Shown here: piece after piece, positions 9,649 through 62,273 of the stretch
Layout: every line of letters begins with the position of its first letter
Position numbering within the stretch: the stretch's first letter is position 1
Translations under genes and position numbers: made by a program
Notes under the pieces: generated by a model
Database searches by the model: none
Told to the model about the DNA's origin: nothing
What the model saw: only the letters and a program-made list of their open reading frames with translations
Assembly: GCA_965649765.1 (NCBI GenBank)
Contig: OZ287752.1
Coordinates: 31,062,001-31,126,000, forward strand
Reading direction: 5' to 3'
DNA: 64,000 nucleotides
Source: Bispira polyomma
Taxonomy: Eukaryota

Positions 9649-12600
9649 CTATACATTTCTTAGGATAGTTTTCAGGCCGTCTTTGATTTCAATGTTAACT
9701 CTTTTAAAATTATCAGAGTAGTCGGGGAGTTTTAAATATAATTCAATCTTTGACTTTACCAAATGCAAATATTCACCAAACATCAAGGGCTTTCCATTTG
9801 ACTTTGAAAAATTTATATACCATTTACTTAACAAAATTAACAAGTTTTGAATCATATTAGTGAATTTTTGTTCCTTAGATCCAGAGCCAAATAATATCTC
9901 ACAAATAGTATATTCTGTATTATTAATATTAAATGCTACATTTACCCACTGTTTCAGTTGCCCCCAAAATTTTCTGCTAGTAGCACAAAAGAAAAAATGA
10001 TGATCAATTGTATCTATTGAGTCACAATAATTACATTTTGGTGAAATCTTAATTTTCCATTTATGCAGATTTAAATTGCAGTTGATCACTCGGTTTATAA
10101 TTTTATATTGGAAGGATTGAAGGTACGGTTCTTTTACCATGAAGTGGACCAAGTTAAATATTTTCTGCCAAGGAGCAACCTCAAGAAACGAATAGGCTTC
10201 AATCCATTTTTCTATAGAAGATGGCTGTTGTAACTTATCATTTATGGCTACCCAGTATAATACCTTATTATTTAATTTTGAGAAATCTGATAATTTACCC
10301 TTTACTAGAATTCTTGGCATTGCGCTTCTTGTCGTATGTGACATTAACATGGGTTTTAAAACATCTTTCCAAGCCTGTGGTATGGAACTAAAAATGATAT
10401 TGTAAGTTAAAAAATCTATATTTAATCTAAACTTCGTGGCAAACTGTTCAAAAGATAGAAAACTGCCATTACTTGATATATATCACTTATTACTAAATCC
10501 TGGGTGTCGGCTTCCTGTAATTTAAAATCTTGTGACTGTAAAGGTTTATTTCCAGAACATATAAATTTATTATCAAAGATAAATTCATTCATGATTTCAT
10601 CGCCTGATTTTGGAGCTACACCATGAAATTGCTCCCAACATTCAAACATCTGCCTGTGAAAAAGTGTTTGGCATTTAAACCTCTGCGTTGGTGGCAATTT
10701 TTTCTTTATTTTACTTTTTTCTATATTTAATAGATACCAGGTTAAAAGTTGCCACTTTCCATGATTTTGAACAAGCAAGTTTTTTATCCATTTTATTTTG
10801 GACACTATATTAATAGCAAATATATCAGGCATTTTAAGACCACCCATGGCATAAGGGGCAGTTATTGTACTCCTTTTAATTTTTGCAGGTTTATTTTCCC
10901 AAAGAAATTCAAATAAAATTCTGTCTATTCTTTTCAATATGTTTGTTGGACAAAAACATACTGACAGTAAGTAGCTTATCTTAGGTAGAACTAGTGATTT
11001 TAATATTAAGATCTTGCCTTTCAAAGACAATTTCCTGCCTTTCCACATACTTATTGTAGTCCCCATTGCTTTTAGCCTATCTTCAAAATTCAGTGCAATT
11101 GATTCATTTAAGTTATATGAAAACCATATGCCTAAAGTTTTAAAGTTTGCTTGATTGATCATAATTTTGTGTATTGACCTAGGTAATGTTACCTTTTGAA
11201 ACCTCGATGTACCAATTGGAATTACTTTGCTTTTTTCAATGTTAACTTTTAATCCTGAACAGTTGTGAAATCCCTTGAGATACGAGATTAAATGAACAAC
11301 AGAGTCAATATTACTTGTGAATACAGTTGTATCATCTGCTAATTGACAGATCTTATATTCCTTCTTTTCTATATTTATTCCTTTTATCAATTTATTATTT
11401 CTTATTGCAATGGCCATTATTTCTACAACTAGTAAAAACAAAAGGGCAGATATTGGACACCCTTGTCTTATTCCTCTACATAACTGGAAATATTCAGAAA
11501 AGTATCCATTATTACTTACACAAGATGCTATACTTCTATATAGTATTTCGATCCACTTTTGGAAATTCGGTCCAAAATTGAAAGCTTTTAATGTTTTAAA
11601 AAGAAAAGACCATTCCACACTATCAAAAGCTTTTTCAAAATCTAATAATACGATATAGCCAGGCAAATTTCTCAAATCTGTGTATGACATAATGTCTTCT
11701 ATCAATCTAATATTTTCCCCTATATATCTATTTTTTAAGTAACCTACTTGATCAAAATCAATTAATTTTGGTAGTACCAATTGTAGCCTATTTGCCAATG
11801 CCTTAGTTAAAATTTTGTAGTCAGTATTGAGAATGCTTACTGGTCTCCAATTTTTTAAAAATCTTAAATCTTTGTTCGGTTTTGGAATAAGGTTAAGGAT
11901 ACCTCGCCGCTGATCATCTGTCAACAGTCCATTTTGAAAAGAGTACTTAAAGCTGTCAAACAATAAGTTTTGGATATCTGGCCAAAAAAATTTATAAAAA
12001 TTTGTTGTAAAGCCATCGTTTCCTGGTGTTTTATCATTTTTTAAATGTTTCAGTGCTGCTGCAATTTCTGGTAATTTTAGGGGACTATCACACATTTGTT
12101 TTTCAATATCATTTAAGTGATATCATATGTTGTTGCTCTTTTATGAAATCTTCAATTCTTTCATCCTCCTCAGTGACCTTAGAAGAGTATAGGTTATAGT
12201 AGTACTTTCTTTCTTCTTCTAAAATGTCTTTAGGATTTGTTATTTCAGCTGTGTCAGTGCATATTAATTTCTTGATATATTTGGAATTATAGTTTCTTTT
12301 CTCTAAGTTAAGGAAATACCCAGTATTCTTTTCTCCCATTTCAACCCATTGCACCTTTGACCTGAGGATTGCCCCTTCGGCCTTTTCATTTTGTAATTCT
12401 TCCCACTGAGTTTTTACCTCATTATATTCATGTATATTTTCAATGTTTTTTGCTATTTCCTTTTCTAAATTTTCTAGTTTTTGCTGTAAACACTTTTCCT
12501 TTTCTATTTTTTTCATTGCTTTTGATTTTGAATATGTTATAGTTATTGTTCTTATTTGGCACTTAACAAAATCCCATAATACATTTTTATTTTGTAAGTA

Positions 12601-13463
12601 GTTATCTAGGGTTATTTTGTGTAGTTCTTCTTTTACTAGACCAACATAAGTTTCATCATGTAGTAATTTGTTATTAAATTTCCAATAACCTCTTCCTCTG
12701 CGCTGAATATTAATAAGCTGCACCGTTAACTTAATTACACTATGATCTGATTTAAACCCTGGTTTAATAGAACAGTTTGATACCTGGGCTCCAACATTAT
12801 TTGAAATTAAGAAGTAGTCTAACCTTGACTGAATCAAACCTGCCCTTGAGTTTTCTCTTCTTGTAAATTTTAACTCTGTTGGATGTCTCAATCTCCATAT
12901 ATCACCTAAATTATACTCTTCCATAATACTTATGATTCCTGATGCATATTTTGTCAAACTTTCATTACTTCCTCCCTTCTTGTCAAGTTTAGGATTCAGG
13001 TAGGTATTGAAATCTCCACCAATAATTACACTCTTATCAGCAAATTGTTCCAATATATTTTTAAAGCTTTCCAAAAATTCTAACTGTAAATCCACCTTAT
13101 CTTTTGTAGGTGCGTATAAATTTACTAGTAGAAATGGGTTTTGATCTATTTCACAATCTAGAATAATCATCCTACCTTCATCATCATTTTGCGCATTCAA
13201 AATTGTTAATTTGATATCATTTGGTATTAAAATTGCTACCCCCCTACTTTGATTGCTACCATGTGAGAAATGTATGTCTCCTTTCCATTCGTCTTGCCAC
13301 TTTTTTCATCGAGTATAACAGAATGAGTCTCCTGTAACATTATCAGGCCTCGATTTTTGGACAGTAACCACTTAAAAACTGCGTTTCTTTTCTTAACATC
13401 CCTTAACCCTCTGCAATTAAAAGAGTTGACCGCTATCTCATCTTTATCTGAATACATCTTCAT
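9649..13463 (-). pseudogene. LINE ORF2: apurinic endonuclease, reverse transcriptase and CCHC zinc finger, at least 3 frameshifts
   Basis: NCRGL, LQETH, GGDFN, SRLDYF, SDH (APE); KTPGNDG, NWRPVSILNTDYKI, LDFEKAFDSV, RQGCPIS, QLADDT (RT); CNYC..DTIDHHFFFC. Split across ORFs 13236-13463, 12109-13200, 10422-12095, 9649-10350. Confidence 0.93.
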
Positions 13464-14160: not shown

Positions 14161-15364
14161 TTATAAGGAAGGTTTTAGTTCAGTTCTTACTTTCATCAGT
14201 GCTCGTCCCATCAGGTTGTTTCCTTTCCATTGTCTTTTATCCCATAACTTTTTATCTCCAAGTGAAAGTCCTATTCCATACTCTTTGTCTGATTTGCTGG
14301 CTTCCGCAATCACAGTGTCCTCAGTTGCAATCAGGAAGGCACTTAACTCTGAATTCTGTCTGAATTTTTCAAAAAGTCCATCATGCAGTATTTTTTCGAT
14401 TTCTCTCTTCCAAATGTTCTTGTCAAAGTGTTTCACGGTCCTGCCAAGCCTTTTAATAACTACTGGATCATGCTCAGATGATAGTTTGTGGATTAGAAGT
14501 GGGTCTCCAAAAAGCTCTGCTATCCTTATAAACAGAAATTGTTCCATGCTGCTATATGTTTCTCCATTCACAGTAAATTTACACTGATAATGATTAGACA
14601 GCATATTGTACTTTGAGTAAAATCCCGTTACATCTCCTCTAGTTGGTGTGAACAGCTTGTTCAAATCCAGCTTACAGTGTTGTTTCTCCAAGTCCCCAAC
14701 TTCATATACCTCCGATTTCACAATTAACTTGTCATCTTTGAGATATATTCCCCCTGTATCTTTATTTTCCTGTTCAAAACCAGCTTTTACTGCCTCCATC
14801 ACCGGGAACAACTTCCTTCTTGCCTGTGCAATTTCCAATGGTAAATCTTCCACAGTTGTTATGCCTTGTTGATTACTTATCTCCCTTTTTATCCTCAGGA
14901 TGCTCAGTTTGTCCTTAAAATTTGCTAATCTTGCTATAACAGCCCGATTCTGTGAATCTGTGAATTCTTTCAAAAGATCGTCAGTCCAGTCTTTGAGGCC
15001 CCTTGAGAAACTTGTTGCAAATATCCAACATTTTCTGCTCTAAATTTTCATCTCTCTCTTCAGCTACACCCAGAAATCTGATATTATTTTTCCTTTGAAA
15101 CAGTTCTAACTTATTAACTTGATCGTGAAGTTTCTTATTTTCCTCTTTCAACTGTGTAATTTCTTCTATATTCTTTGTTTTTGTCTGACAAAAGTCTTTT
15201 TTTAAGGATTCAAGATTGCTCTGAATAGGTTTTATATGCTCATTTAACTTCTCATCCAATACTTCTCTTAAAATATCCTTGAAATTTTCATTTTGATTTA
15301 ATAATCCTTCAGGTGAAAATAACATATCTGTGTGAAGGCATTTTGGGGTACAAGGTGAAGCCAT
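14161..15364 (-). pseudogene. LINE ORF1 (coiled coil, RRM, CTD) fused to a C-terminal NADAR domain; one stop and one frameshift near 14955-14983
   Basis: ATG at 15364; coiled coil; RKNNIRFLGVAE, ERIHR, RAVIARL, EDLPLEIAQARRKL (L1 ORF1 motifs), continuing in frame into NADAR motifs. Confidence 0.88.
14164..14631 (-). other. NADAR (YbiA-like) domain within LINE ORF1
   Basis: FYSKYNMLSNHY, YSSMEQF, IKRLGRTV, FDKNIW, EKFRQN, LIAT, EASKSDKEYGIG, WKGNNLMGRALMKVR match the NADAR signature order and spacing. Confidence 0.9.
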
Positions 15365-17103: not shown

Positions 17104-18456
17104 TCAATTCAAAAAAAGTTTGCCCAATTCAAAAATATTTTTCCATCCATATTTTGTTGTCAGTGCCTGCAAGAACAAGTTTGCTGTTATGAGAAAGTTA
17201 ATACATTTTACAGCTTGTGCAAGGCTCTCTTTGTGGCTCAGTTTAACAGTATAGCGCATAACCTGTATGCCCTGCCCCAATTCAATCAGACAGTTTGATC
17301 TTCTACAGACATGGGAAACCATTTTGATCAGGTTGTTGAAGTGGTTCACATGGAGGAGATACTTTTCAAAGTTATCCACCATTTCTGACAATTGCCTCAC
17401 AGCTAATTGCATAATGTTGCATTCCAAGTAGTTATGGCTCTGCTTTTTCTCTTCAAAAAGATTACGATTCAGAGCAAAATGGGACAGAACTCCTTGCTCA
17501 AAATACTTTAAGAGAGCTCACAGAAGTAACTGAACTCCTGAATCTACACATTGCCAAACTTCATCTTCTGGGGTGTGTGCCTCACACATCAACAAGAAGG
17601 TTGTCTTGGCCAAATATGAAGTGAAGAAAGCATCATCATTCTCATTGTCATGTTCGCCACATGAGATTGGTCTCAAATAGCGATAGAACATGCTTTTAAA
17701 AAGGACATAAGCATGCCTCTGAAAGGTGCTTATCTGTGAAAACAATTCAGTCTCTACCTCTGCAAAAAAGCACCGTCCACCTGTTTTTCCTATGACTGCT
17801 GCAACATGAACTTTTCTTGAAATATCTTGCCGGATTATTTGGCTTGGCCATTTTCCTTCAGTTTGTAGCCAAGGAATGTCTCTGGGCCACTCTTGAAATA
17901 TTCCTGCTGCAACATAATCCACATGAACCTCAAAGAGAGTTTTATGTTTTACCTTCACAGGCATCTTTACGAAATTATATTTAATGGATGTACCCTCTTT
18001 GTCATAGTGTTGTGGACACATATCTATCTGTGTAGTTGTGCCCAGGGCAAGTTTAAAAGCATTAAGAACCACACCGTTTGGATCTCTAAATTTAGAACTG
18101 TATTCTAACTCCTTTGTTTTTTCTGTATTTGATATTGCTTTTCCATTACTGTCTACAAACACAATGGCACCTGTACTTTCATCCTTTTTGGCTATCCACC
18201 TTTCACATCCACCTGCTGAAAAACATATAAGGTCTGCTTCAAAAATATAATGCTGTATATCTGGATTAAAATTGTATAGTCCAAATGTACCATCTGCAAG
18301 ACTTCCTTGATGTGTACAGGAACTAGTGAAATTTTGGCCATAAACTCCTTCACTAGAAGTCAATAGCCTGAGACCAGATTTGAGAGTCTTCAGCAAACTG
18401 GGGGAAATTCCTTCATATTTTGTTAAGCATAGAATTAGTTTTGTTGTAAATGCCAT
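17104..18456 (-). pseudogene. Mab-21/cGAS-like receptor (cGLR) paralog A, interrupted by one in-frame TGA at 17518-17520
   Basis: GSLADG...EAD, HVDYV, EWP, TSYLAKT motifs; ORFs 17518-18456 and 17104-17427 share a frame; paralog B has CGA at the equivalent codon (52718-52720). Confidence 0.88.
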
Positions 18457-19779
18457 ATTTTAATGTATATATTGAGTTAAACGGTCCAAGTATTTGTATC
18501 ATATATGATTTTTTTTACACCAAAAAACTACATTCTGTTGAACACCCTTTAGATATCTGTACAGATGTTTTGCACAGCTTTTCACCCACAAATGTATTTT
18601 ATCACTGTTACACACAAGTGGGCAAAACGTCTCTTTCTTAACTTGGAGTCAAACTTTCTTATCTCCTCTCTCTAAGTAGTAAATCTGTTAGTCAGTGTGC
18701 ATTAAAATAACATTGGATTGTTTTCGTTTTGACATGAGTGTAACCCATAAAAATAACAAAAACGCCCTACCATATTCTACATAATTAACTTACATTACTA
18801 TGACAAATTACCACTATAAATGAGGTTTTAAGTGGCTTTCTAAAACAGGCTAATAACTGCCTTACACTTTAAGTAATAAAAATGAAAAATGTAAATGATG
18901 TAACTGCTTGATAAAAATTTTATATAATGATTTTCAAGCCAAAATTCACTGGTTTAATAAGACCTGAATGTGTTAAAAAAGTAAAGCTAGTGTAACAAAT
19001 CTGCAGTAATAGTTAATAGAGCAATAGAGGTTAATACTGTAAGGCACCATTAGTTACCCTTAGATAGGGTGTTGATAAGCTTATCTCAAAAATGGCTTGG
19101 AGTTTCAAATTTGGTGGATCTACCCTGTTAGGTACGAAGATGGGTTGCAAAATATTTTGTAACGATACCTACAGTACTTTTTGAAACATTAAGGGTTTTA
19201 TGGGATTTTTCCAAGAACTGGTATGTGTCTACAAGCTAATCTCAGGAAGTACTGTTGCTGGTATTTTGAAATACAATTAAAGTATGCTACAACTATTGAG
19301 GATGAATTGTTTCAAAATTCAGAATAATTCCTTTTTCCAGTAAAGATATATTTCAATTTAGCTGGAGCATAGTTTTTAAACTTATAACCTGCCATGCTGT
19401 TTTATATTCCAGAACATTCTCTCTGTGTGTATAGTAATCTGCCAGTGCGAAAGAAACCATTTTTTTTTTAATTTCTGAGATATCTTCGGTAACTTCCATA
19501 GAAACTAGAACATACATATATACTGGCTAATCAGAGAAAGAGTATGACGCCATTTTCTAAAATATCTCCAACAATTGTCACAAATATTACGAACAGCTTT
19601 TTTTATTTGCTGGTGGATCTCTTATTTATGGATTAAAAAATTAAAATTAGTAATACCTTGCATAGAAATGTGTACTGCTTCTATATAAATAGTGTTGGGT
19701 ATTTTTACCTGATGTTTTTTAGTTATAAATAAATTACACATAATTGTGTCAAGGCAGATAAAAGAGTCAAAGTTCTGTA

Positions 19780-25828: not shown

Positions 25829-28800
25829 TTAACAACAACTTCTTGATAGAGCATCAGCACAAATGTTATTCTTTCCTTTAACATGCTCTATTTGTAAACT
25901 GTATTCTTGCAAAACCAAACTCCAATTCAATAGACGTCTGTTTTTGTTTTTCATTTTGTACAAGAATACTAAAGGGTTGTGATCTGTGTACACAATAGTT
26001 GGTTTTGATGATGAAGAGATATATATATATCAAAGTGTTTAATGGCTAAAATGAGGGCTAAACATTCCTTGTCTATTGTAGAGTAATTCTTTTGATGTAC
26101 GTTAAATTTTTTTGAAAAATAACAAATGGGATGTTCAATATCTTCATCATCAGTCTGCAGTAAAACTGCACCTGCTCCAACATGTATTGCACTTCTTTTC
26201 TTAATTTTTCAAGTTTAATCGAGTTTACACGATATGGGTGCTGTTTGACCGGAATGGCATTGCCAACATCAACATCATGCATGAGTACATTGGTCCTGTT
26301 AGGGGCATCAAGAAATACTGACTTATACTTCAAGAGTAACTCACTAAGTGGGATTCTCTTATCTGGAGGTACATGATTCAGTTTGGTTTCCAAATCAGCA
26401 AGAATCTCTGAATTACTCAACCTGATTTTACAGTTAACTTCAACATCAGGAGTGTCACCCCATGCTTCATGCTCCTGATTGTTATCATTTTCCACATTAC
26501 AGTCAGTAGCCATGACAGGCTTTGTCACACCCCTTTCAAAGTATGGTTTTACCATATTTACATGACACAGTTGGGTTGACTTCCTTCTGTCCGGGGTTTC
26601 AATGACATAATCCAGATCACCTACTCTTTTTAACACTTTGTAAGGCCCATGATATCTGGCCTGTAACGTGTTCCCCTGGACAGGTAATAGCACTAAAACC
26701 TTGTCTCCCGGTTTAAAAACACGGTTTTGTGACTTTCTATCATAAAGCCTTTTCATTTTTGACTGAGAATGTTTCAAATTTTGTTGCGCTAGCTCACAAG
26801 CCTTTTTCAGCCTACTCCTAAACTTTGAAACATAATCTAACAGGTTTAGGCTCTCAGAGTTCTCAGATAACCAATTTTCTTTCAACAATTTGAGAGGACC
26901 ACGGACTGAATGACCAAACACCAACTCAAAGGGACTAAAGCCTAAAGACTCTTGCACTGATTCCCTAACTGCAAACAATAATAAGTTGATGCCTTCATCC
27001 CAGTCTTTCTCATTGTCTAAGCAATATGTCCTAATCATATTTTTTAAAGTGGAATGGAACCTTTCAAGGGCACCTTGTGATTCTGGGTGATAAGCACTAG
27101 ATTTGATCTGTTTGGCACCTAGCTGAAACACAACTTGCTGAAATAATCCTGACATGAAATTTGACCCTTGATCTGACTGGATCTCCTTTGGTAAGCCAAC
27201 TAAAGTAAAGAAATTGACTAAAGCTTTCGAGATTTTCGGGGCTGTTGTGTTGGTCAAAGGTATGGCTTCAGGGAATCTGGTTGAGGCACACATAATGGTT
27301 AGGAGATATTGGTTTCTGGATTTAGTCTTTGGTAAGGGGCCTACACAATCCATTATCACTTTGCTGAATGGTTCCTCAAATGCTGGAATGGGTTTTAGAG
27401 GAGCTACAGGAATTTTTTGGTTTGGTTTTCCTACAACTTGACAAATGTGACAAGTTTTACAAAATTCTGCCACACAGCGCCGGATTTGAGGCCAGTAGAA
27501 ATGCTTGGATATTTTGCCATAGGTTTTGTTGATGCCTAAATGGCCACCCATTGGAGACTCATGAGCTAACCTCAATACATCATTTTGGTACACTTTTGGT
27601 AATACAATCTGATGAAGTATTGACCAGTTCTCAGAGGTAGGGACACTTGGCGGCCTCCACTTTCGCATAAGCACACCATTTCTGATATAATAGCCTACTG
27701 GGACCTTATCTAGCTCTACTGGTGGTAACACCAATTTGAATAGAGCGGCTAATTCAGGGTCATTTTCCTGCTTTACAATCAATTTTGATTTTGAGAGTGA
27801 TACATCTGGATCATCAAATTGGTCTTGTTTCCCAGAATCTTTCCTACCTTTAGGGTCAATCTCACTATGATTTTGCACATCATGGTCACAGTTGTTTAAG
27901 AATGTATCTGATAAATCAACTAAGACATCTGCAGATTGTTTACAATCTTTTGGTTCTTCTTGGGCTTTTTTAGCCATAGCTCGAGTCACAGCACAGGAGG
28001 GAAAAATACCAGGAATAACCTCTTCTAATTTCTCAGTGCTAACCAAAGTGATCGGCTTAGAAGTAACCTTAGGATCAGCAACCACCTTGCCACCTGCCAA
28101 ATCATTTCCCAACAGCAAAGACACCCCTTTAATGGGTAAAGTGGGCCTGGTACCCACCACAACAGAACCAGTAACTAAGTCTGATACTAAGTTGACCTTA
28201 TGTAAGGGAATGTTTACACAACCTCCTTCAATACCTTGAGCAATAATACTCTCACCAGTAGAAGTGCTTACACTCAGTGGCAATACACCTTCTAAAAGTA
28301 GTGACTGAGTAGCACCAGTGTCTCTTAGTATCCTAATGGGAACTTGACTGGAACTACTTTCTAAGGACACAAAACCCTCAGACACAAAAGGTTTGAACTC
28401 ATCCCTAATCTCAGACTTGTCTAAACCAATACTAGATTCTGCTCTATTGGGATTTGAACGCCAATTAGATTTGCTAGAAATAAAAGCATTAGGTGTTGCC
28501 TCCTTTTCTCTCCTTTTCTTAAGGAGCCAACAGTCAGACATAACATGCCCAGGTTTTTTACAGTAATGGCACACAGGAGCAAAGGACCTAGGTTTCCTAT
28601 CCTTACTCATTGTCTGATTTGTTGTTTGAAACTTATCGGAACTCTTTTCTGGAGCTACATTTTCGAATTTCTTTCCTATTTCAGGATAAAACTTCTTTGT
28701 GGGACCAGAGGATTTACTCTTGTTAAAAGTGAACTTGTGAGTCAGCGCATAATCATCAGCATAAGCTACTGCTTTTTGCAAATTTTCTACTTTCTGTTCA

Positions 28801-29864
28801 TCCAGATAGGTTTTAATGTCATCACGAACACCCCTTTTGAACTCCTCAATTAAAATGACTTGCCTAAGCTTTTCAAAGTCTGTACCAACTTCTCTAGAAT
28901 TACACCATCTGTCAAAGTACACTTCTTTTTCATGGGCAAATTCAACATAAGTTTGATTTTCTTGCTTACGATAATTTCTGAATTTTTGACGATATGCTTC
29001 TGGTACCAACTCATATGCTTTCAAGATAGCATTTTTCACACAGTCATAATCTCTACATTCAGAAATTGGCAAAGCTGTATATGCCTCTTGGGTTTTGCCT
29101 TTGAAAACACTTTGCAGCAATAAAGGCCATTGGTTTGTGGACCATTTCAAATTTTGAGCCACTCGTTCAAAGTGTTGAAAATATTTATCAACTTCGGACT
29201 CGTTGAAAGGTGGTACCAGTCGCATATTTTTACCCAAATCAAATTTGGTTGCCATGGACTCTTCATGGGCAATTCGGCGAGCATTGAGTTCCAAAGCCTT
29301 CATTTCCCTTTCATGTTTAAGTTCAAGCTCTTTTTCAAATTTTTGAGCTTCGAGCTCTTCTTTTCGCCTTTGAGCCTCAAGCTCAAGCTCTTCTTTTCGC
29401 CTTTGAGCCTCAAGCTCTTCTTTTCTCCTTTGAGCCTCAAGCTCAAGCTCTTCTTTTCGCCTTTGAGCCTCAAGCTCTTCTTTTCTCCTTTGAGCCTCAA
29501 GCTCTTCTTTTCGCCTTTGAGCTTCGAGCTCTTCTTTTCACCTTTGAGCTTCGAGCTCTTCTTTTCTCTGTTGTTGCTGAGCTTCAAGCTCTTTAAGTTT
29601 TAGCTCTCTTTCAATTTCTAATCGCCTGATCTCAAATTGCCCAGAAGGTTCCATTGGCAGAGGTTCATACACTTCTAAACAACTATCATGCAAAAGGTCT
29701 TCATCAACTAACTGTTCAACAATAAGCCTTTTAAGTTCATGTTTACGTGTTGACTTTTTCACATCTAACTGTAATTCCTGTGTTATCTGCATTAACATAT
29801 CTTTTTTAAAAGTTTCTAGAACCTCAATAGATGGTGACTGTATAAACTCTTTAGCACTAGCCAT
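25829..29864 (-). pseudogene. Gag-Pol polyprotein (Gag with CCHC knuckle, protease, integrase, RT N-terminus, out-of-frame RNase H)
   Basis: CHYCKKPGHVMSDC; LRDTGA; HHCC plus DCVG/SDQG/LERFH; PVKQHPYR; then GAVLLQ..PICYFSKK..YTDHNPL..ADALSR. In-frame TGA at 29538-29540; RT core absent. Confidence 0.92.
29340..29565 (-). repeat. Coding tandem repeat (21/27-bp units, KEELE(LE)AQRR) in the gag coiled coil
   Basis: Repeated CCTTTGAGCCTCAAGCTCTTCTTTTC units. Confidence 0.9.
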
Positions 29865-29950
29865 TTTGAGCACTGTTGACTGTAATATATTTTTCAACAA
29901 AATAAATGATTTTTCAAAAAGCTATAAAAATAGTTAGATCAAATGGTTAG

Positions 29951-43381: not shown

Positions 43382-44340
43382 ATGGCTCCGAGAAAGGTGT
43401 ACTGCACTGCATGTAACCAGAAACACAGCAAGCCTGCCGACGAGGAGTGCCCTTATATGGTAGTTGATTCCGAGAATGTTGCTGATACAGAGGACCAGAT
43501 GTTCAGGCTACAGCTGGGACAAGTACTAGTGAGGTCTCTCAAAGGGAGGTTAATTTACAAATACTGTCTGAACTTAAGCAATTAGGTTCTCGTATAGCTT
43601 CTATTGAAGGCAAGGTTGCCAGTACTGAAGCTGACAAAAATGTAAACAAACACTGTACTTCCGAAAGTACTAGTACTAGAAGTGCTGGCAATAACTCTAA
43701 TGTAAACATAGGCGGTAGTTCTGAAAGTACTAGTACTAGAAGCTGCTGTGCTGGCATTAACGTTAATGTAAACAAAGGCTGTAGTTCTGATAGTAGTAGT
43801 AGTATGTGTGCTAGCAACAACCCTAATGTGCCACTTACACAAAACAATGGCTGTACTTCCGAAAATACAAGTACTAGAAGCTGCTGTGCTAGCAATAACC
43901 CTGATAGTCAGCTTCCCTCTTTATCTAGTGTCAAAGAACAATACCAAGTAGAAATAGAGAGCAGATTAAGAGAGTTGCGTCAGGTAAATGAGAAAGAAAA
44001 AACAGGTAACTTAAAATCTCAAAGAGGTGGGCCTGTGGATGTATATGTAAAACACAGAGTTCCATGGCCTCAAAATAGTATTCTCTCAGGTTCTAGCAAG
44101 TCACATGTGTCATATGATAGTCTGAATGTATTCCAATGGGTGGCTGGCTTCAGCCGGATTATTCACGAGGAGTCAAATGCTGACACAAAAAACTTCATGT
44201 TGGAGTATATGTGAGAATTATTTGAGGATGCACATGACTTCTCGTGGACTTCTGCTAAAGCCAGCCACGCCTTGCTCCTATGTCGTATGGAGGAAGGCAA
44301 GGTCGCCTGGAACCAAACTGACCGTATTGACCATATGAAA
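43382..44340 (+). pseudogene. DIRS gag-like ORF1 with internal Ser/Thr/Asn-rich repeats; frameshift and stop
   Basis: N-terminal CxxC..H..C; VPWPQN, YDSLNVFQWVAGF, ELFEDAHDFSW; TGA at 44212-44214; four ~60-bp repeats at 43650-43905. Confidence 0.75.
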
Positions 44341-45873
44341 CGACTGGAAAATTACTGGGACCAACAATTAGTGAGTTTAATTTGCTGTGGTTTCCCTCTT
44401 GATGTAAAAGATCAATCAAATCTGGTAGCCACGGGTGAAAATCACAAGTCTGCCACAGAATTCTCTAAGCATGTCACTCATTATTTAAAGGAAGAACAAG
44501 ATTTTAAAGCAATTATGGGTCCTTTTGATAAAAAACCAGTAAGTAACTTCCACTCATCCCCTTTCATGACCAGGGACAAACCCAACTCAGATAATCGCAG
44601 GGTCATCATTGACCTGAGCTGGCCGAGTCAGCATGCTGTCAATTCAAATGTGAGTCCAGAAATATATTTGGGTACTCCTTTTATACTTACTTTTCCTTCT
44701 GTTGATTTAATAACAAATGAGGTTGTCAAATTGGGACGAGGCTCTAAGCTTTATAAGATAGACATTAGTAGAGCTTTTCGGCATGTGAAAATGGACCCGG
44801 GGAATATCCACATATTGGGTCTTTCCTGGGAGAATCAGTACTTTCTAGACACTTGCCTACCTTTTGGGTACAAGCATGGTAACACTATTTTTCAAAAGCT
44901 AAGTGACTCAGTCAGATACATGATGCAAGAGCTAGGTTTCCCAGTTATCAATTACATTGATGAATTCATAGGCTTTGGACTAACCACTACAGCTAAAAAA
45001 TCCTATCATACCCTCTATGACCTCCTGCAGGAGCTAGGTTTGACAATCAGTAGTAAAAAACTCATTCCCCCTAACACTCAGGTCACATGCCTGGGGGTAG
45101 ACATAAATACTGAGACATTCACTATATCAATACCTAAAGAAAAAATGCAGCAAGTTCTGAATAATTGCATGACTTGGGGTGAGAAAGAAACATGTACCAA
45201 AAGACAATTGCAGTATCTCTTAGGCAGTCTGCTGAATGGCGCAAAATGTGTCAGAGTGGCTAGATGCTTCCTAAACAGAATGTTGCAATTGTTAAGGGAC
45301 AACAAAAACAGTAGAAGTATCAAAATTACTGATGAGTTCAAGAAAGACCTTAAATGCTTTCAAAATTTTCTCCCCTTTTACAAGGGGGTCTCATTTTTCT
45401 TGCATAGACCTGTACAGGAAACAATCAGTCTAGACGCCTGTCTGACAGGCCTGGGAGGTCATTGGGGAAACTTGGTCTATGCCTGCACTATTCCCATAGG
45501 TTTTCTATCTCTGGGAATTGTGCAGCTAGAAATGCTAAACATTCTAGTGGCAATGAGAATATGGGCCCAGCAATGGGCGGGTAAAAAAGTTTTGATATAC
45601 TGTGACAATCAGGCCGTAGTTAGTGTACTCAATTCTGCAAGAACAAAAGACATTTTTCTCGGGGCCTGCGCAAGAAACATCTTAATGTTATCTGCTATTC
45701 ATGATTTTGAGCTTAAAGTTGTTCATGTACTGGGTGTAAAAAACAATGTGGCTGACCTGCTGTCTAGATGGCAGGACACAAAAGCCAACCATGCTCAGCT
45801 TAAAAGTTACATACCCAATCCAATATGGCTAGCGGTAAATGAAGAATACTTATATGTAGATTTCTCATTGTAG
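44272..45873 (+). CDS. DIRS reverse transcriptase/RNase H (catalytic YIDD altered to YIDE)
   Basis: GFPLD, RVIIDLSWP, KIDISRAFRH, LPFG, NYIDE, LDACLTGLGG, CDNQAVV, NVADLLSR. Confidence 0.88.
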   Translation: MLLCRMEEGKVAWNQTDRIDHMKRLENYWDQQLVSLICCGFPLDVKDQSNLVATGENHKSATEFSKHVTHYLKEEQDFKAIMGPFDKKPVSNFHSSPFMTRDKPNSDNRRVIIDLSWPSQHAVNSNVSPEIYLGTPFILTFPSVDLITNEVVKLGRGSKLYKIDISRAFRHVKMDPGNIHILGLSWENQYFLDTCLPFGYKHGNTIFQKLSDSVRYMMQELGFPVINYIDEFIGFGLTTTAKKSYHTLYDLLQELGLTISSKKLIPPNTQVTCLGVDINTETFTISIPKEKMQQVLNNCMTWGEKETCTKRQLQYLLGSLLNGAKCVRVARCFLNRMLQLLRDNKNSRSIKITDEFKKDLKCFQNFLPFYKGVSFFLHRPVQETISLDACLTGLGGHWGNLVYACTIPIGFLSLGIVQLEMLNILVAMRIWAQQWAGKKVLIYCDNQAVVSVLNSARTKDIFLGACARNILMLSAIHDFELKVVHVLGVKNNVADLLSRWQDTKANHAQLKSYIPNPIWLAVNEEYLYVDFSL

Positions 45874-45913
45874 CTGTACTTTCAGAAATTCCTCAAGCTG
45901 CAGGTGTACTGGT

Positions 45914-46858
45914 TTGGCTAGGCTGCAGAAAGCGTTCAGGCCTAACACTACAAAAAATTACCTGGCCATGTTTAAATCCTTCTTGGCCTACCTGTGTTTC
46001 CTGCGTTGTCCCACCTCCAAGGTAACAGTTCCGGTTTTTTTGTCTTTTCTTGAATTTTTGACAAAAAATCAAACATCTGCCTCTATGATAATTAATCATA
46101 TGTCAGCTGTTAAAGCCTATTTTAGTATGTATGGCCTGTCGATTGCCATGTTTGATGAACCTCGCATTAAACTGTATAACAAGGCCTCCCTCAATAATAG
46201 GCCCTTGGTGGCTCAGATCAAACCTGTTTTGAATTCGCATATATTACTTCAGCTTGTATTGGCTTGTGATAGTACTAACATGGGGCAAATCTATAAAGCT
46301 GTGTACTTGACAGCTTATTATTCTTTTCTTCGCATGTCCAATCTGGCACCCCATGTTGCCTCAATGTTTGACCCATCGAGACATTTATGTAAAGGTGATA
46401 TATTTTTCAAGCCTCCGGACATTCACTTGTTAATCAAATGGTCAAATACCATTCAGTCTAGAAACTCAGTGAGACTGATAAAGATTCCCTCCCTTGGCTC
46501 CTCTGCTTTGTGCCCTGTGACTGCCCTGAGAAATGTTTTAAGGCTTTCCCCTGGGGGTCCCAATGCAGCCTTATTTCAAGTTAAAGTGGGTCAAGCCTGG
46601 GCTCCCCTCACTGATAGCAAGATCAGGCATCATCTGGGAATAGTCCTCCATCTGGCGGGCCTTAGTAGTTCAGGCCTAACGTTTTATTCTTTCCGGTGTT
46701 CAGGTGCGTCTTTGGCTTACAATTCTAATGTTGAGTTGGAGCATATCAAAGAACACGGCACCTGGACGTCGGATGCAGTCTATTCATACTTGGTACAAGA
46801 CCAAGCTGCGGGACAGCAAGTGGCCTTAGCTTTTAAAGCCCTTTTGCACAAACCTTGA
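45914..46858 (+). CDS. DIRS tyrosine recombinase (HxxR motif degenerate: YSFR)
   Basis: FLRMSNL, KWSNT, CPV, YSFRCSGAS, HGTWTSDAVYSY. Confidence 0.88.
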   Translation: MARLQKAFRPNTTKNYLAMFKSFLAYLCFLRCPTSKVTVPVFLSFLEFLTKNQTSASMIINHMSAVKAYFSMYGLSIAMFDEPRIKLYNKASLNNRPLVAQIKPVLNSHILLQLVLACDSTNMGQIYKAVYLTAYYSFLRMSNLAPHVASMFDPSRHLCKGDIFFKPPDIHLLIKWSNTIQSRNSVRLIKIPSLGSSALCPVTALRNVLRLSPGGPNAALFQVKVGQAWAPLTDSKIRHHLGIVLHLAGLSSSGLTFYSFRCSGASLAYNSNVELEHIKEHGTWTSDAVYSYLVQDQAAGQQVALAFKALLHKP

Positions 46859-52303: not shown

Positions 52304-53659
52304 TCAATTCCAAAAAGGTTTCCACAATGCAGAAATACTTTCCAGTCCATATTTTGTGTTCAGTGCCTGCAACAAAAAGCTTGCTCTTGTGAGAAAGTTA
52401 ATACTACCTACAGCCTGCACAAGGCTCTCTTTGTGGCTCAGTTTTACAGTATAGTTCATAACCTGTATGCCTTGCAACAATTCCATCAGAGAGTCCAATC
52501 TTCTATAGATTAAGGAAACAATTTTGATCAGGTTGTTGAAGTTGTTCACATGTGGGAGATACTTTTCAAAGTTATCCACCATTTCTGACAATTGCTTCAC
52601 AGCTAATTGCATAATGTTGCATTCCAAGTAGTTATGGCTCTGTCTTTTTTCTTTAAAAAGGTTATGTTTTAGTGCAAAATGTGGTATATCTCCTTGCTCA
52701 AAATAATTTAAGAGAGCTCGCAGAAGTAACTGAACTCCTGAATCTACACTTTGCCAAACTTCATCTTCTGGTGGGTGTGCCTCACACATCAACAAGAAGG
52801 TTGTCTTGGCCAAATATGAAGTGAAGAAAGCTTCATCATTCTCATGTTCGCCACATGAGATTGGTCTCAAATAGCGATAGAACATGCTTTTAAAGAGGAC
52901 ATAAGCATACCTCTGAAAGATGCTTATCCGTGAAAACAATTCAGTCTCAACCTCTGAAAAAGAGTACCGTCCACCTGTTTTTCCTACGACTGCTGCAACA
53001 TGAAATGTTTTTGAAATATCTTGCCGCATAATCTGGCTTGGCCATTTTCCTTCAGTGTGTAGCCAAGGAATGTCTCTGGGCCACTCTTGAAATTTTCCTG
53101 CTGCAACAAAATCCACATGAATCTCAAAGATAGTTTTACCGTTTACCTTCACAGGTAAAATCACTTGGTTATATTTAATGGATGTACCCTCTTTGTCAAT
53201 TTGTTGTGGACACATATCTATCTGTGTAGTTTTGCCCAGTAGTAGATTAAAAAAATGAAGAACCAGGCCCATTGGATCTCTAAAAGTTGAACTGTATTGT
53301 AATTCCTCTGATAATGCTGTATTTGGAATTGCTTTCCCATTTTTGCCTTCAAAAACAATGGCACCTGTACTTTCATTCTTTTTGGCGATCCGCCTTTCAC
53401 ATCCACCAGCTGAATAATACATGATATCTGTTTCGAAAATGTAATGTGTGATGTCGGGATTAACATTGTATAGTCCAAATGTACCATCTGCAAGACTTCC
53501 CTGCTGTGTATAGGACTCCAAGTCTTTGGTGAACAGCTTGCCATAACCTCCCTCGCTGAAGGCCAATCTTCTAAAAAAGGATTTGATACTGTTCAGCAAG
53601 CTGGAGGATATTTCTGCATATTTTGTTAAGCATGGAATTAGTTTGTCTGTAGATGCCAT
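52304..53659 (-). CDS. Mab-21/cGAS-like receptor (cGLR) nucleotidyltransferase, paralog B, intact 451 aa
   Basis: GSLADG...ETD and HVDFV acidic triad; EWP, RYSFSEVETELF, TSYLAKT, IPHF..NLF Mab-21 motifs; uninterrupted ORF. Confidence 0.9.
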   Translation of the reverse strand: MASTDKLIPCLTKYAEISSSLLNSIKSFFRRLAFSEGGYGKLFTKDLESYTQQGSLADGTFGLYNVNPDITHYIFETDIMYYSAGGCERRIAKKNESTGAIVFEGKNGKAIPNTALSEELQYSSTFRDPMGLVLHFFNLLLGKTTQIDMCPQQIDKEGTSIKYNQVILPVKVNGKTIFEIHVDFVAAGKFQEWPRDIPWLHTEGKWPSQIMRQDISKTFHVAAVVGKTGGRYSFSEVETELFSRISIFQRYAYVLFKSMFYRYLRPISCGEHENDEAFFTSYLAKTTFLLMCEAHPPEDEVWQSVDSGVQLLLRALLNYFEQGDIPHFALKHNLFKEKRQSHNYLECNIMQLAVKQLSEMVDNFEKYLPHVNNFNNLIKIVSLIYRRLDSLMELLQGIQVMNYTVKLSHKESLVQAVGSINFLTRASFLLQALNTKYGLESISALWKPFWN

Positions 53660-53693
53660 ATTTTAATATACATATTAACTTTAATAAGTTAAA

Positions 53694-57754: not shown

Positions 57755-58553
57755 TAAAGCTCTGCAGGGAGACTGATTGTAAAACACTTTTAAAAGTCTT
57801 CTATTTTAAAACAGGCAGAATAATAATTTTTTTCCTATTAAATTCTTAATAAGTGTATGCTAATACAGCTCTGAAGTAATATCTCAAATAGAGACCCATA
57901 CTGAGAAAATTAGGGGGTCTGCACTTAATGGATCATGTGCAATAATTACTTCGAATACTGTAGTTTGTTTGGACTAATGTTCCATAGGGATGTAGATGTT
58001 ATCAAATAACCTCACTTTGACCTTGGAATAATAACTATCAGTCTGAAATTTTGAGAAACTACTTGTCATAAGTATAAAGGGTAAAGGGGCACTAGGGTAA
58101 GGGTGCCAGGTAAGAGGGCCTCATCACACAAAAACATTAATCCCAGTTGGGGTAGAGGGTTGGTAAGGACCAAATATAGTACAATTCTTGACATCTACAT
58201 CTCTTTGTACTATTTGCCTCATTATCCAAGCCTAACCAATAAACAATACTGAACTCCATATTTTTGGCAGAGTGTTGTCTCTGACTAAAGTGCCTGAAAA
58301 CTGGGGTGGACTTTTGATGGGTTTGGGGAAGTTTTTTTGTGGCTTCTTCCAGTAGGCTCAGAGTATGATGACTCAATCTGTTGCCAGGTATACGTGTACC
58401 TGGCTCTGGAGTATTGAATGTTGAACTTTATCCCACTTATAGGTGGTTAAGTGCTGGGATGGAGCTGTGTCACTTGCACTCATGGTTATATACCCAAGTG
58501 AATAATATAAAAGTTTGTTTGAACTTGGTGCAGGTGACAGGAGTAATCTGACT

Positions 58554-58614
58554 GCCTTATATATTAATATTGGTTAATATATTTCGAACTCCTATGGGTA
58601 TTCTCATCAGAGGC
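58554..58614 (-). ncRNA. Type I hammerhead ribozyme (inverted copy)
   Basis: Reverse complement of 59182-59242 with one change in the stem II loop. Confidence 0.85.
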
Positions 58615-59181
58615 TGTATTAGAATCACCTTTTTTGCTTTAAGGTGGTAAAATGAATATAGTGTCAGTGGTATTTGTGTAACAATCATAACTACCAAATT
58701 TATATGTGGTTTACTTGCCATATATTTACCAAATGTACATTAACGCATTCACACATACTCACACTGAACTAACCTGTGTTTATGTATATATTACATGTTA
58801 ATTTTACCTAGTACCACATATGGTTCTTTTCCTTGGTCTATTGAAAACCATGGATAAATGAAATCCAATTAAAGCACATCTTTTGGATTCTATATTTTAT
58901 TCAGATAAAAATATTAATTATACTCCACACAGGTATAATTATAATCATTTATATTATATTATAAAATATTATGTATATCTGCCTTTATTAACTGTACACT
59001 ATCTGTGGACCCTACCTGGTCACCTTAATTAGGTGTAATCATGGTTTTGAGCCTCCACAACACCTGGAAATGACTTAGAGCCCATATAGAGCTCTACTTA
59101 GCTCAACTGCTCCACCGGATCAGGCGGAGTTGGGCGGAGTTCATTTTACCACCTTAAGGCAAAAAAGGTGATTCTAATACA

Positions 59182-59242
59182 GCCTCTGATGAGAATACCC
59201 TTAGGAGTTCGAAATATATTAACCAATATTAATATATAAGGC
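59182..59242 (+). ncRNA. Type I hammerhead ribozyme
   Basis: GCCT-CTGATGA-[GAA..TTC stem II]-GAA-ATATATTAA/ccaata/TTAATATAT (9-bp stem III)-A-AGGC; predicted cleavage after AUA at 59238. Confidence 0.85.
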
Positions 59243-60559
59243 AGTCAGATTACTCATGTCACCTGCACCAAGTTCAAACAAACTTTTATATTATTAACTT
59301 GTCATAAGTATTCAGTATTATAAATTTAGATGTGTGACGTAACAGTGCTCACTGACAGTTGATTAGTCCATCTTTGAATTTGCTGTGCAAGTCAGTTACC
59401 TGTATCTTAGGGGGTTTCGGCTTTACTATAGTTTTTATGCAAGTAATACCTTGAGATCTATAAAATGTAATTCATTAGTTTTTAAAAAAAAGAGCATAAC
59501 CTCAGTTGTCACAAACAAAATATTAATTATTTGATGTGATATTCTAGGGCTTGGGTTCAAATCATTGTTTGTAGGTTAGTCTTGCAACCTTAGAGAAATA
59601 TGTTTTATGAATATGCTCATCACTGTGCAACAAGCTGGAGGAACTTCAGAATTACCTATTCATAACAGGTTCTCAATATAAATTCTCTATAGTATGCAAT
59701 GACTATTCATTCAAATACTAAAGTACTATGCTGGCTTTGTCAGTGTATTTAATTCAAAACCAACCACAGAAGAAAAAAGACAGTAAAAAGTTATAAAGAG
59801 CATTTAACCTATACGTACCCAGTGTGACTGGGCCACATGACAAATTTTCAGAAATTTTCTGATTTGGCCCGTAATCTTGAATTTCCTTCCGTCATCTTGG
59901 AATGTATTGTTAGCCTATAGGAAACAAGGGTCAGGCAATCTTATGAACTGGTCACATTTGACCTACAACTTTAGATTCAAGTACAAACTACGGTCACAAA
60001 GGTCAATTTAACTTTTCAGTATCTTGTGTGATACCTCAAAAAAGTAACAATAGAACCTCTATTATCCAATCCTCTAATATTTGAATATTAGATTTCACTA
60101 ATTCAATGTCATTCACAAAAGTGTTTTTTTGCTATTGTTTTATACTAAAATGCAACTTCTACTTTACTGACCTTCTTTATCCAAACAAATTATTACTCTC
60201 CCAAGATGTCCGTAACATAGAGATGCTACTGTACTTGGAATGCCACCAAACTTGCTACAATATCTCCATAATCTTAAAGGTAAGATTTTTCAACAACTTT
60301 TATGACCCCCCAAAAGGGCCACTTTTTATGTTTTTGCTTTGCATTTTGTTTACTATTGGATTTAGAGACATGGAATGTATTGTGAGCATATGGGAAACCA
60401 GGGTCACTGAATCTAATACACTGGTCAGAATTTATCTCTGAGCTTGGATTCAAGGGCAAATTGGGATAAAGGTAAATTTGCAGTTTTTTCTATCATATAG
60501 AATATTATTTGTAATGCCATTTACCTGACTAAGGTATTTCTGTATAACTTGTAACTCGT

Positions 60560-61907
60560 AATTAGACTTTTATCACACTTTATCTACCCTTTACACCGGG
60601 AACTCTAAGGCGCACCAGCACAAAGGACAGTAATCCAATTTCCAAAATCAAGGGACAGAAAAGGGTCAGCACCAAAGAGCGTGCTGGGGGATGATTGAAA
60701 CTAAGGTGGGTATGCTTTAGTGTACAAGTGGGTTTTAAGCTGCTTTCTAAAACAGGCTAGTGAGGGGGAAGCACGAATCACATCAGGAAGAGCATTCCAA
60801 ACAATGGGAGCATCAAAAGCAAAGCTGTGACCAAACTGTTTAACCGATTTTTGAGTAGATGGGTGGAACTTCGGAACTTATAAACAAGTGTAGCTGTCTT
60901 AAACACTGAACGCTGTTCAACAGGGAGCCAATGCAATTTCTTAAGGACAGGAGTTATACTGGTGTATCGACTGGTGTTTGACACAATTCTAGCTGCACTA
61001 TTTTGAATGCATTATAATTTACGTAAATTAAACTTTGAAAGACTCCTGAAAAACGAATTGCAGTAATCCAGTCTACTACTGACAAAAGCATTGGCCACAA
61101 GTATAGAAGCATCATAAGTGAGACACCGCCTGACACGTCTAAAGTCCCGGAGTTGCACAAAACAGCTTTTGCAGAAGACACTCTGAACGTGTTTAGAGAA
61201 AGAAAAGTCAGAGTCAAACCATACACCTTCTTGACAGAATCATCTGGGCTGAAAGGGCTACCCAGAATGTCAACTGGAAATAATGCTTTCAACTTATCCC
61301 TCTGTTGTTTTGAGCCAAAGATTATGAACTCAGTCTTGTCGGGATTAAGTTTGAGTTTACCAGTTGCTATCCACTCTTTCACATCGTCAAGGCATCTGTT
61401 TAACTGTTCAAAGGCAGTAGATGTGTTCTTATGGGATAGGTGCACATAAATTTGGGTATCATCTGCATAAAAATGAATTTAATATCTGTGTTTTTGCCAA
61501 AAACCAATCTCAGATGGGCAGTGTACAATAAGAACAACAGAGGGCCCAAAACAGAACCCTAAGGAACACCAAACAAGAGTCCACAAAGATCGGACAAAGC
61601 AGAGCCAATTTCCATCGACCGACAATGATCAGTCAAGTAGAAAGTGAACCACTCAAAAACAGAGCCCCCAATTCCAAACCAAGTCTGAAGACAACTGAGA
61701 AGCGTGGAACAACCAATGGTGTCAAAGGCAGCAGAGAGGCCAAGCAACACCAGGGCAGCAGGTTTCCCGCCCCAACAAAGACAGGCGAACTTCACTCCTC
61801 ATAGACAGAAGAGCTGTCTCAGTTGAATGACCTGTCCCATACACAGACTGGCATGGGCCGCCCAAGTCGTGGACAAAGATGTGATCCAACAGTTGCCCAG
61901 CAAACAT
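60560..61907 (-). mobile_element. 5'-truncated L2-type LINE fragment with an A-to-G hypermutated 5' segment
   Basis: HSTETALL, LSAAFDT, GVP.GSVLGP, YADDTQIY, LKLNPDKTEF, LHWLPV motifs across shifted frames. Confidence 0.88.
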
Positions 61908-62273
61908 AACTCAATAATCTTATAAAGTATAACTCACTAATCTTAGTGGAAATGTTCAAATTTTAGGGGTGGCGAATTTCAGATACAGTGGTCAATTTTA
62001 GATTCTTTGCTTAAGTTATTCTGTGGTGCTTTAAAATCGGGAGCAGTTGTAATAACTGACTGCTGTCAATGTCACAGCCCCGGTTTTGAAGGGCTGGAGG
62101 GAGCTGACCTCATTAACATGTATATTACGATGATGTGTGACATGTATCACATGCATAAAAGTTAAAGATGGTAAATTTTTGTCCAACTTATGAACTGAAA
62201 TACAGTTAGCCTAGCTACTTTAATATTAAATACAAGATTCAAGATGTTTCTAAAAATAGAAAAGTCACCCTAT

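Follow-up and report, generated by a model that had tools for sequence, protein, structure and literature searches.

A one-way A-to-G tract in a truncated CR1/L2-group LINE copy, probably a trace of ADAR-edited RNA

We analyzed a stretch of 64,000 nucleotides of Bispira polyomma DNA (hereafter the window), in which a 5′-truncated copy of a non-LTR retrotransposon (LINE) lies on the minus strand within an older host repeat. The features of this locus, in window positions, are as follows.

59888..60549, plus strand: older repeated host sequence in which the LINE inserted, with uninterrupted paralogues
60544..60549, plus strand: target-site duplication ATAACT at the 3′ end of the element
60550..60563, minus strand: 3′ tail of short AATTAC-type repeats, the terminal repeat of the family
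60550..61905, minus strand: 5′-truncated non-LTR retrotransposon copy of the CR1/L2 group, dead, the 3′ 1.36 kb of the family element
60550..61525, minus strand: 3′ remainder of the copy, unedited (no change at 225 conserved A)
61526..61898, minus strand: A>G hypermutated tract in the reverse transcriptase (RT) coding region, with A>G at 37 of 81 sense A and no T>C at 134 T
61710..61711, minus strand: second CA now read as TG, probably an edit followed by CpG decay (C in 28 of 29 sister copies)
61773..61774, minus strand: CA now read as TG, probably an edit-made CpG that then decayed (C in 29 of 29 sister copies)
61906..61911, plus strand: target-site duplication ATAACT at the 5′ junction

The full family element measures ~3.25 kb. 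The window copy is dead and without its 5′ half, and carries frameshifts, one stop and, at 60877/60878, a private deletion of ~100 bp. A first look in G000 (assembly of 1.04 Gb) gave up to 1,865 candidates for the family. A sister copy matched the Pfam domain RVT_1 (E = 2e-32) and, weakly and below the cut-off, the APE-type endonuclease domain Exo_endo_phos (E = 2e-4), and relatives of ~1,000 aa possess both domains. With endonuclease and RT in one frame, a tandem tail and a 2A-like peptide near the N-terminus, the family has the makeup of an APE-type non-LTR retrotransposon of the CR1/L2 group. Such peptides have been reported for CR1, L2, L2A, Crack and Rex1 elements (PMC3708506). In our sister copy (L063, 1712-2326, plus strand) the peptide precedes the endonuclease and a serine replaces the conserved glutamate, a variant (E>S) that has been found in CR1 as well as L2A elements and that was inactive where assayed (PMC3708506). 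As the 120 listed relatives include no named reference, the label L2 could not be told from CR1 and the family is assigned to the CR1/L2 group only. Deletions of ~80–100 bp, differing from one another, occur in the same 3′ region in the window copy (60877-60878) and in L005, L017, L068 and L071, a possible deletion hotspot of the element. On two chromosomes (L047, C5 at 9.08 Mb; L048, C3 at 74.9 Mb), the same interrupted LINE copy sits within a duplication that extends over at least 7.7 kb (96.5%).

The window copy is a clean target-primed insertion. It has an intact 3′ tail, a 5′ truncation and a 6-bp target-site duplication, and its empty site can be reconstructed, as two nearby uninterrupted paralogues of the host repeat continue into 61906-61925 and thereby join the left and right flanks. 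The duplication and the tail support integration by target-primed reverse transcription. Outside the tract (60550..61525) the copy differs by ~2.5% from the family majority, against a family median of 1.8% (240 copies), and is therefore not new.

Compared with the full panel of family copies, the sense strand of 61526-61905 reads G at 37 of 81 A positions, while no T>C was seen at 134 T positions and A>T and A>C are absent. The result hardly depends on the reference: when the 29 best copies supplied the majority, 61560-61906 showed 35/79 A>G and 0/118 T>C (Fisher p = 4e-17), the remaining changes being seven C>T, four G>A and one G>T, and against the 15 nearest copies by subfamily alleles A>G reached 36/80. 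In other copies the background at the same columns was 1.4% (145/10,273; binomial p = 1e-44), and no other copy had G at more than 8 of the 81 sites. Only 3 of 74 G positions in the tract read A, so that there is no sense G>A cluster of the APOBEC type. What is present is clustered A>G on one strand, free of T>C and of other changes of A, as is typical of ADAR hyper-editing. The first edit, at 61898, lies 7 bases inside the 5′ junction. The last lies at 61526, a sharp 3′ boundary beyond which none of 225 conserved A was changed; measured against the full-panel majority, 4 of 233 downstream sites read A>G, three of them at subfamily-polymorphic columns. In the upstream flank 0 of 18 alignable A were edited, and further out 1 of 62. 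Most edits fall in codons whose amino acid is changed (29/36), including those of conserved RT motifs.

An earlier note, made from the letters of the window alone, had placed such a tract at 61560..61907 on the strength of a sense-strand A content of ~14% against ~35% in the neighboring part of the element. Exact counting returned the same figures (47/340 over 61561-61900; 85/240 over 61261-61500) and the tract is confirmed, though it is slightly longer, with edits reaching 61526. Part of this contrast is native, the family itself having ~23% A there (79/346), and what is left comes from A>G change. The six ancestral motifs that the note had proposed (LDLSAAFD, TID, QSAYK, DNPYQ, IKNEVH and KW) are all present in the intact ORF of a sister copy. 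Its further claims, that the changes are dominated by A>G on one strand, that the Gs are not ancestral in the family and that the tract adjoins the 5′ truncation point, are borne out by the counts above.

The edited sites had a pronounced 5′ context. Editing affected 17 of 20 adenosines preceded by T, 11 of 23 preceded by A, 5 of 21 preceded by C and 4 of 17 preceded by G, which reproduces the order U>A>C>G that the human enzymes ADAR1 and ADAR2 follow on long duplex RNA (PMC3113232, including Table 3). The earlier note had expected depletion after G; on its own this depletion is borderline (p = 0.055 vs the rest), and it is the enrichment after T that is strong (p = 6e-5 vs the rest). The background A>G of sister copies shows a mild T bias (0.9% vs 0.5–0.7%). 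As for the 3′ side, a preference for A has been described in invertebrates and for G in mammals (PMC5625713). In the tract, editing was highest before A (14/23, p = 0.14) and stood at 8/15 before G (p = 0.57), neither being significant, and 3′ purines taken together gave 22/38 (p = 0.046) in a test picked after the data had been seen. Five loci in G000 match A_deamin (PF02137). At one of them, on C11, CHAE, PCGD and SCSDK occur, which we take to be the catalytic motifs of the deaminase, and judged by such matches G000 carries a putative ADAR-type deaminase gene.

Two positions bear on the age of the edits. At 61773..61774 and 61710..61711 a CA of the family now reads TG, as would be expected if an edit had made a CpG whose C then decayed. 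C>T was found at two of the six CpGs created by edits as opposed to 9 of 247 other C (p = 0.023, six sites only), and at 2 of 23 ancestral CpGs. Although the numbers are small, the CA-to-TG pattern is what editing with later methylation decay in DNA would leave.

Further tracts of this kind were sought in a family panel of 270 other arms at 268 other places, for an aligned total of 528 kb. The panel consists of the top-scoring matches among up to 1,865 candidates and leans to well-conserved copies; it includes segmental duplicates, and HSPs below 80% identity were dropped. In none of the 270 arms was there a tract of A>G or of T>C, and a three-letter alignment at 160 other 5′ ends revealed no hidden, heavily edited segment. 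Among other repeat families, 7,267 alignments covering 770 kb of flanks held no one-way cluster. The search for other A>G copies that the earlier note had suggested covered the family panel and the flank repeats, and found none. At one in 271 arms, with the window copy chosen for its tract, the frequency in this biased panel is near or below 1%; such tracts are rare. Tract searches detected no donor and no descendants (best matches not above 86% or 81%), and the rare variants that the window copy has in common with any one other copy number at most four.

An assembly or sequencing artefact, in which edited RNA reads or base-calling errors had entered the consensus, is very improbable. It is true that none of the listed contigs covers the tract from end to end, and that the one public run with a match (X1), whose library type is not recorded, may come from the sample used for the assembly and hence is not independent. 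Nevertheless, an 85-nt contig of X1 is identical to 61806-61886 with zero mismatches, over 81 bases that include 8 edits together with two private non-A>G changes of the window copy, and this match rules out a consensus error. Read support, raised in the earlier note, is therefore exact for part of the tract. In runs X2 and X3, which share a sample, 61840-61890 was not covered exactly, a result that carries no weight, and no RNA run among those listed holds the tract sequence. The copy also has a target-site duplication, its private indels recur in no unedited twin, and its CA>TG double changes require time in DNA. Taken together, the two decayed CpGs and the X1 match of 8 edits indicate old DNA and not an assembly error. 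No better placed is an origin of the 5′ part from a divergent G-rich subfamily, by template switch or gene conversion, which we regard as largely refuted. In its favor, 3 of the 37 sites have G in ~20% of copies, an older subfamily. However, other copies share at most 8 of the 81 sites although 212 of them cover at least 70, and the tract searches uncovered nothing that could have served as donor. Divergence between subfamilies should moreover run both ways, whereas the changes here run one way and alter the amino acid in 29 of 36 cases, conserved RT motifs among them.

Two other explanations place the change in DNA, and both also predict the observed start of the tract at the 5′ junction. ADAR could have deaminated the sense DNA strand within an RNA:DNA hybrid formed with antisense family RNA, during or after integration, with replication fixing the changes. 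Spectrum and context would be no different under this explanation, antisense LINE RNA would pair with the element only and so leave clean flanks, as seen, and ADARs react in vitro with DNA in DNA/RNA hybrids with their usual sequence preferences (PMC5389660). We nonetheless consider it improbable. The efficient reaction was reported at dA-C mismatches or with a mutant enzyme (PMC5389660). Editing of first-strand cDNA would yield T>C, of which there is none in 134, and any copy would be exposed at any time, yet none of the 270 other arms is affected. Fixation would also need 37 hypoxanthines in DNA to escape repair. Comparably improbable is error-prone second-strand synthesis from the 5′ junction, with G placed opposite T under low dATP and high dGTP or by a Y-family polymerase. 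Strand specificity and a start 7 bases from the junction agree with it, as does the enrichment of W as the 5′ base (28/43 vs 9/38, p = 3e-4), polymerase eta being known to favor WA sites. But the rate reaches 46% (85% at TA) and all 81 sites are free of A>T and A>C, and polymerases eta and iota have spectra of far lower rate and far lower purity; 5′ T is favored over A (17/20 vs 11/23), and the 160 other 5′ ends lack a heavily edited hidden segment.

Spectrum, strand, context, boundaries, insertion hallmarks and rarity of the tract are observed. We find it likely that the LINE RNA was in part double-stranded, that ADAR hyper-edited this part, and that reverse transcription and integration of the RNA followed; the earlier note's inference of integrated, reverse-transcribed edited RNA is thus supported. 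The transcript of a source copy would have formed a duplex of at least 370 nt within the RT region, which ended near 61526 and whose partner may have been an inverted or antisense family copy. As the spectrum and context suggest, ADAR would have turned ~46% of the tract's adenosines into inosine. Target-primed reverse transcription is the established mechanism behind the integration step: the element's RT would start from the AATTAC-type tail, take inosine for G and stop ~370 nt into the edited part, leaving the 6-bp target-site duplication. The copy afterwards aged like its sisters, and two of its six edit-made CpGs now read TG. That the edited duplex itself made the RT stop is speculation, since the 5′ truncation points of the family are scattered along the whole element.

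The points against ADAR editing of the RNA are the missing duplex partner, the lack of a significant 3′ preference, the single event, the start at the 5′ junction that the DNA-level explanations share, and the unedited L1 RNA of HeLa cells (PMC5224506). No long dsRNA substrate was found at the locus or in the element: there is no inverted family copy within 144 kb around the locus and no long hairpin inside the element, where predicted stacks reach 13 bp at most, and edited A had no greater predicted pairing than other A. The model does not require a local partner, since the duplex would have arisen where the source copy lay. Two inverted family pairs exist elsewhere in the genome, so that suitable substrates are available, although the actual one was not found. 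One is a head-to-head pair on C2 (~42.226–42.230 Mb; L200 6006-9823) with 1,360-bp arms (96.8%) and a spacer of ~950 bp, predicted to give a long double-stranded RNA substrate; its arms span the edited region and neither is edited. As a source this pair was rejected, being without 3′ tails and matching 24 of 32 diagnostic sites, which places it in another subfamily. The pair on C3 was likewise rejected, its overlap being limited to the 3′ end.

Several known systems resemble the window copy in part. In hyper-edited avian retroviruses, ‘nearly 50%’ of adenosines are changed (PMC12925331), and the likeness lies in clustered A>G near 50% in a reverse-transcribed element, attributed to ADAR. Those are exogenous LTR elements edited in U3 or an inverted repeat (PMC12925331), whereas the window copy is an inherited, aged, target-primed non-LTR element with no inverted arm beside it. 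APOBEC-edited retroelements (PMC4866542, PMC2873906) likewise show a clustered, strand-specific deaminase footprint relative to sister copies, but theirs is sense G>A, via C-to-U in cDNA and mostly in vertebrate LTR elements, in contrast to A>G with ADAR context here. Editing of the APOBEC type is reported to be absent from 19 invertebrate genomes (PMC4866542, PMC2873906). The main text of PMC4866542 contains the word ‘ADAR’ 0 times, and its supplements could tabulate A>G clusters. Hyper-edited repeat RNA of Metazoa (PMC5625713), in which chicken CR1 LINEs are among the heavily edited, shares dense A>G clusters with upstream G depleted; there, however, the differences are between RNA and genome, while the cluster in the window is in the genome. 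In the restriction of human LINE-1 by ADAR1, ADAR meets LINE RNA during retrotransposition, as proposed here, but that restriction is editing-independent and no editing was seen in more than 2.5 kb of L1 RNA in HeLa cells (PMC5224506). The window copy suggests that edited LINE RNA can occasionally complete integration. In the literature searched, mostly open-access main texts, we came across no account of germline LINE copies edited by ADAR.

The copy has no evident function and records an editing event. More broadly, we lean slightly towards the view that ADAR editing acts throughout animals as a source of heritable germline mutation in LINEs, in which inosine-rich RNA would escape destruction, be copied by the RT of the element and tend to truncate in the duplex, leaving a datable fossil record of germline dsRNA and of ADAR preference. 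If true, that record would be the RNA-level counterpart of APOBEC-edited ERVs. If the window copy is rightly explained by ADAR editing of its RNA, LINE retrotransposition can write RNA editing back into inherited DNA, despite the unedited L1 in culture. Two questions could then be addressed on assemblies alone: the rate at which ADAR-edited retrotransposon RNA gets through to integration, and a possible role of edited duplexes in 5′ truncation. With a small effect in this family (1/271) and a dead copy, the value lies in the record of a mechanism and not in function.

Elsewhere in the window, a 162-bp inverted repeat (58495-58656 and 59140-59301; 97.5%, ~480 bp apart) is probably a MITE. Gypsy-like gag-pol ORFs with an EELEAQRRK repeat region occupy 26073-29921 (minus strand), as judged by their translation, and a DIRS-like retrotransposon with RT, RNase H-like and tyrosine-recombinase-type ORFs, two of its matches below the cut-off, occupies 43486-46858 (plus strand). 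Two paralogous intronless ORFs lie at 52304-53662 and 17104-18459 (both minus strand). The former encodes 452 aa and matches Pfam Mab-21_C (E = 1.6e-7), and the latter is broken by a stop at ~17518, with a 313-aa part that has no Pfam match; the Mab-21_C match suggests cGAS-like receptors. Finally, a NADAR domain (14161-15039, minus strand; E = 4e-37) comes after an ORF1-like stretch, immediately upstream of L1/Tx1-like endonuclease and RT ORFs (9649-13305, minus strand), and may be part of ORF1 of that element.
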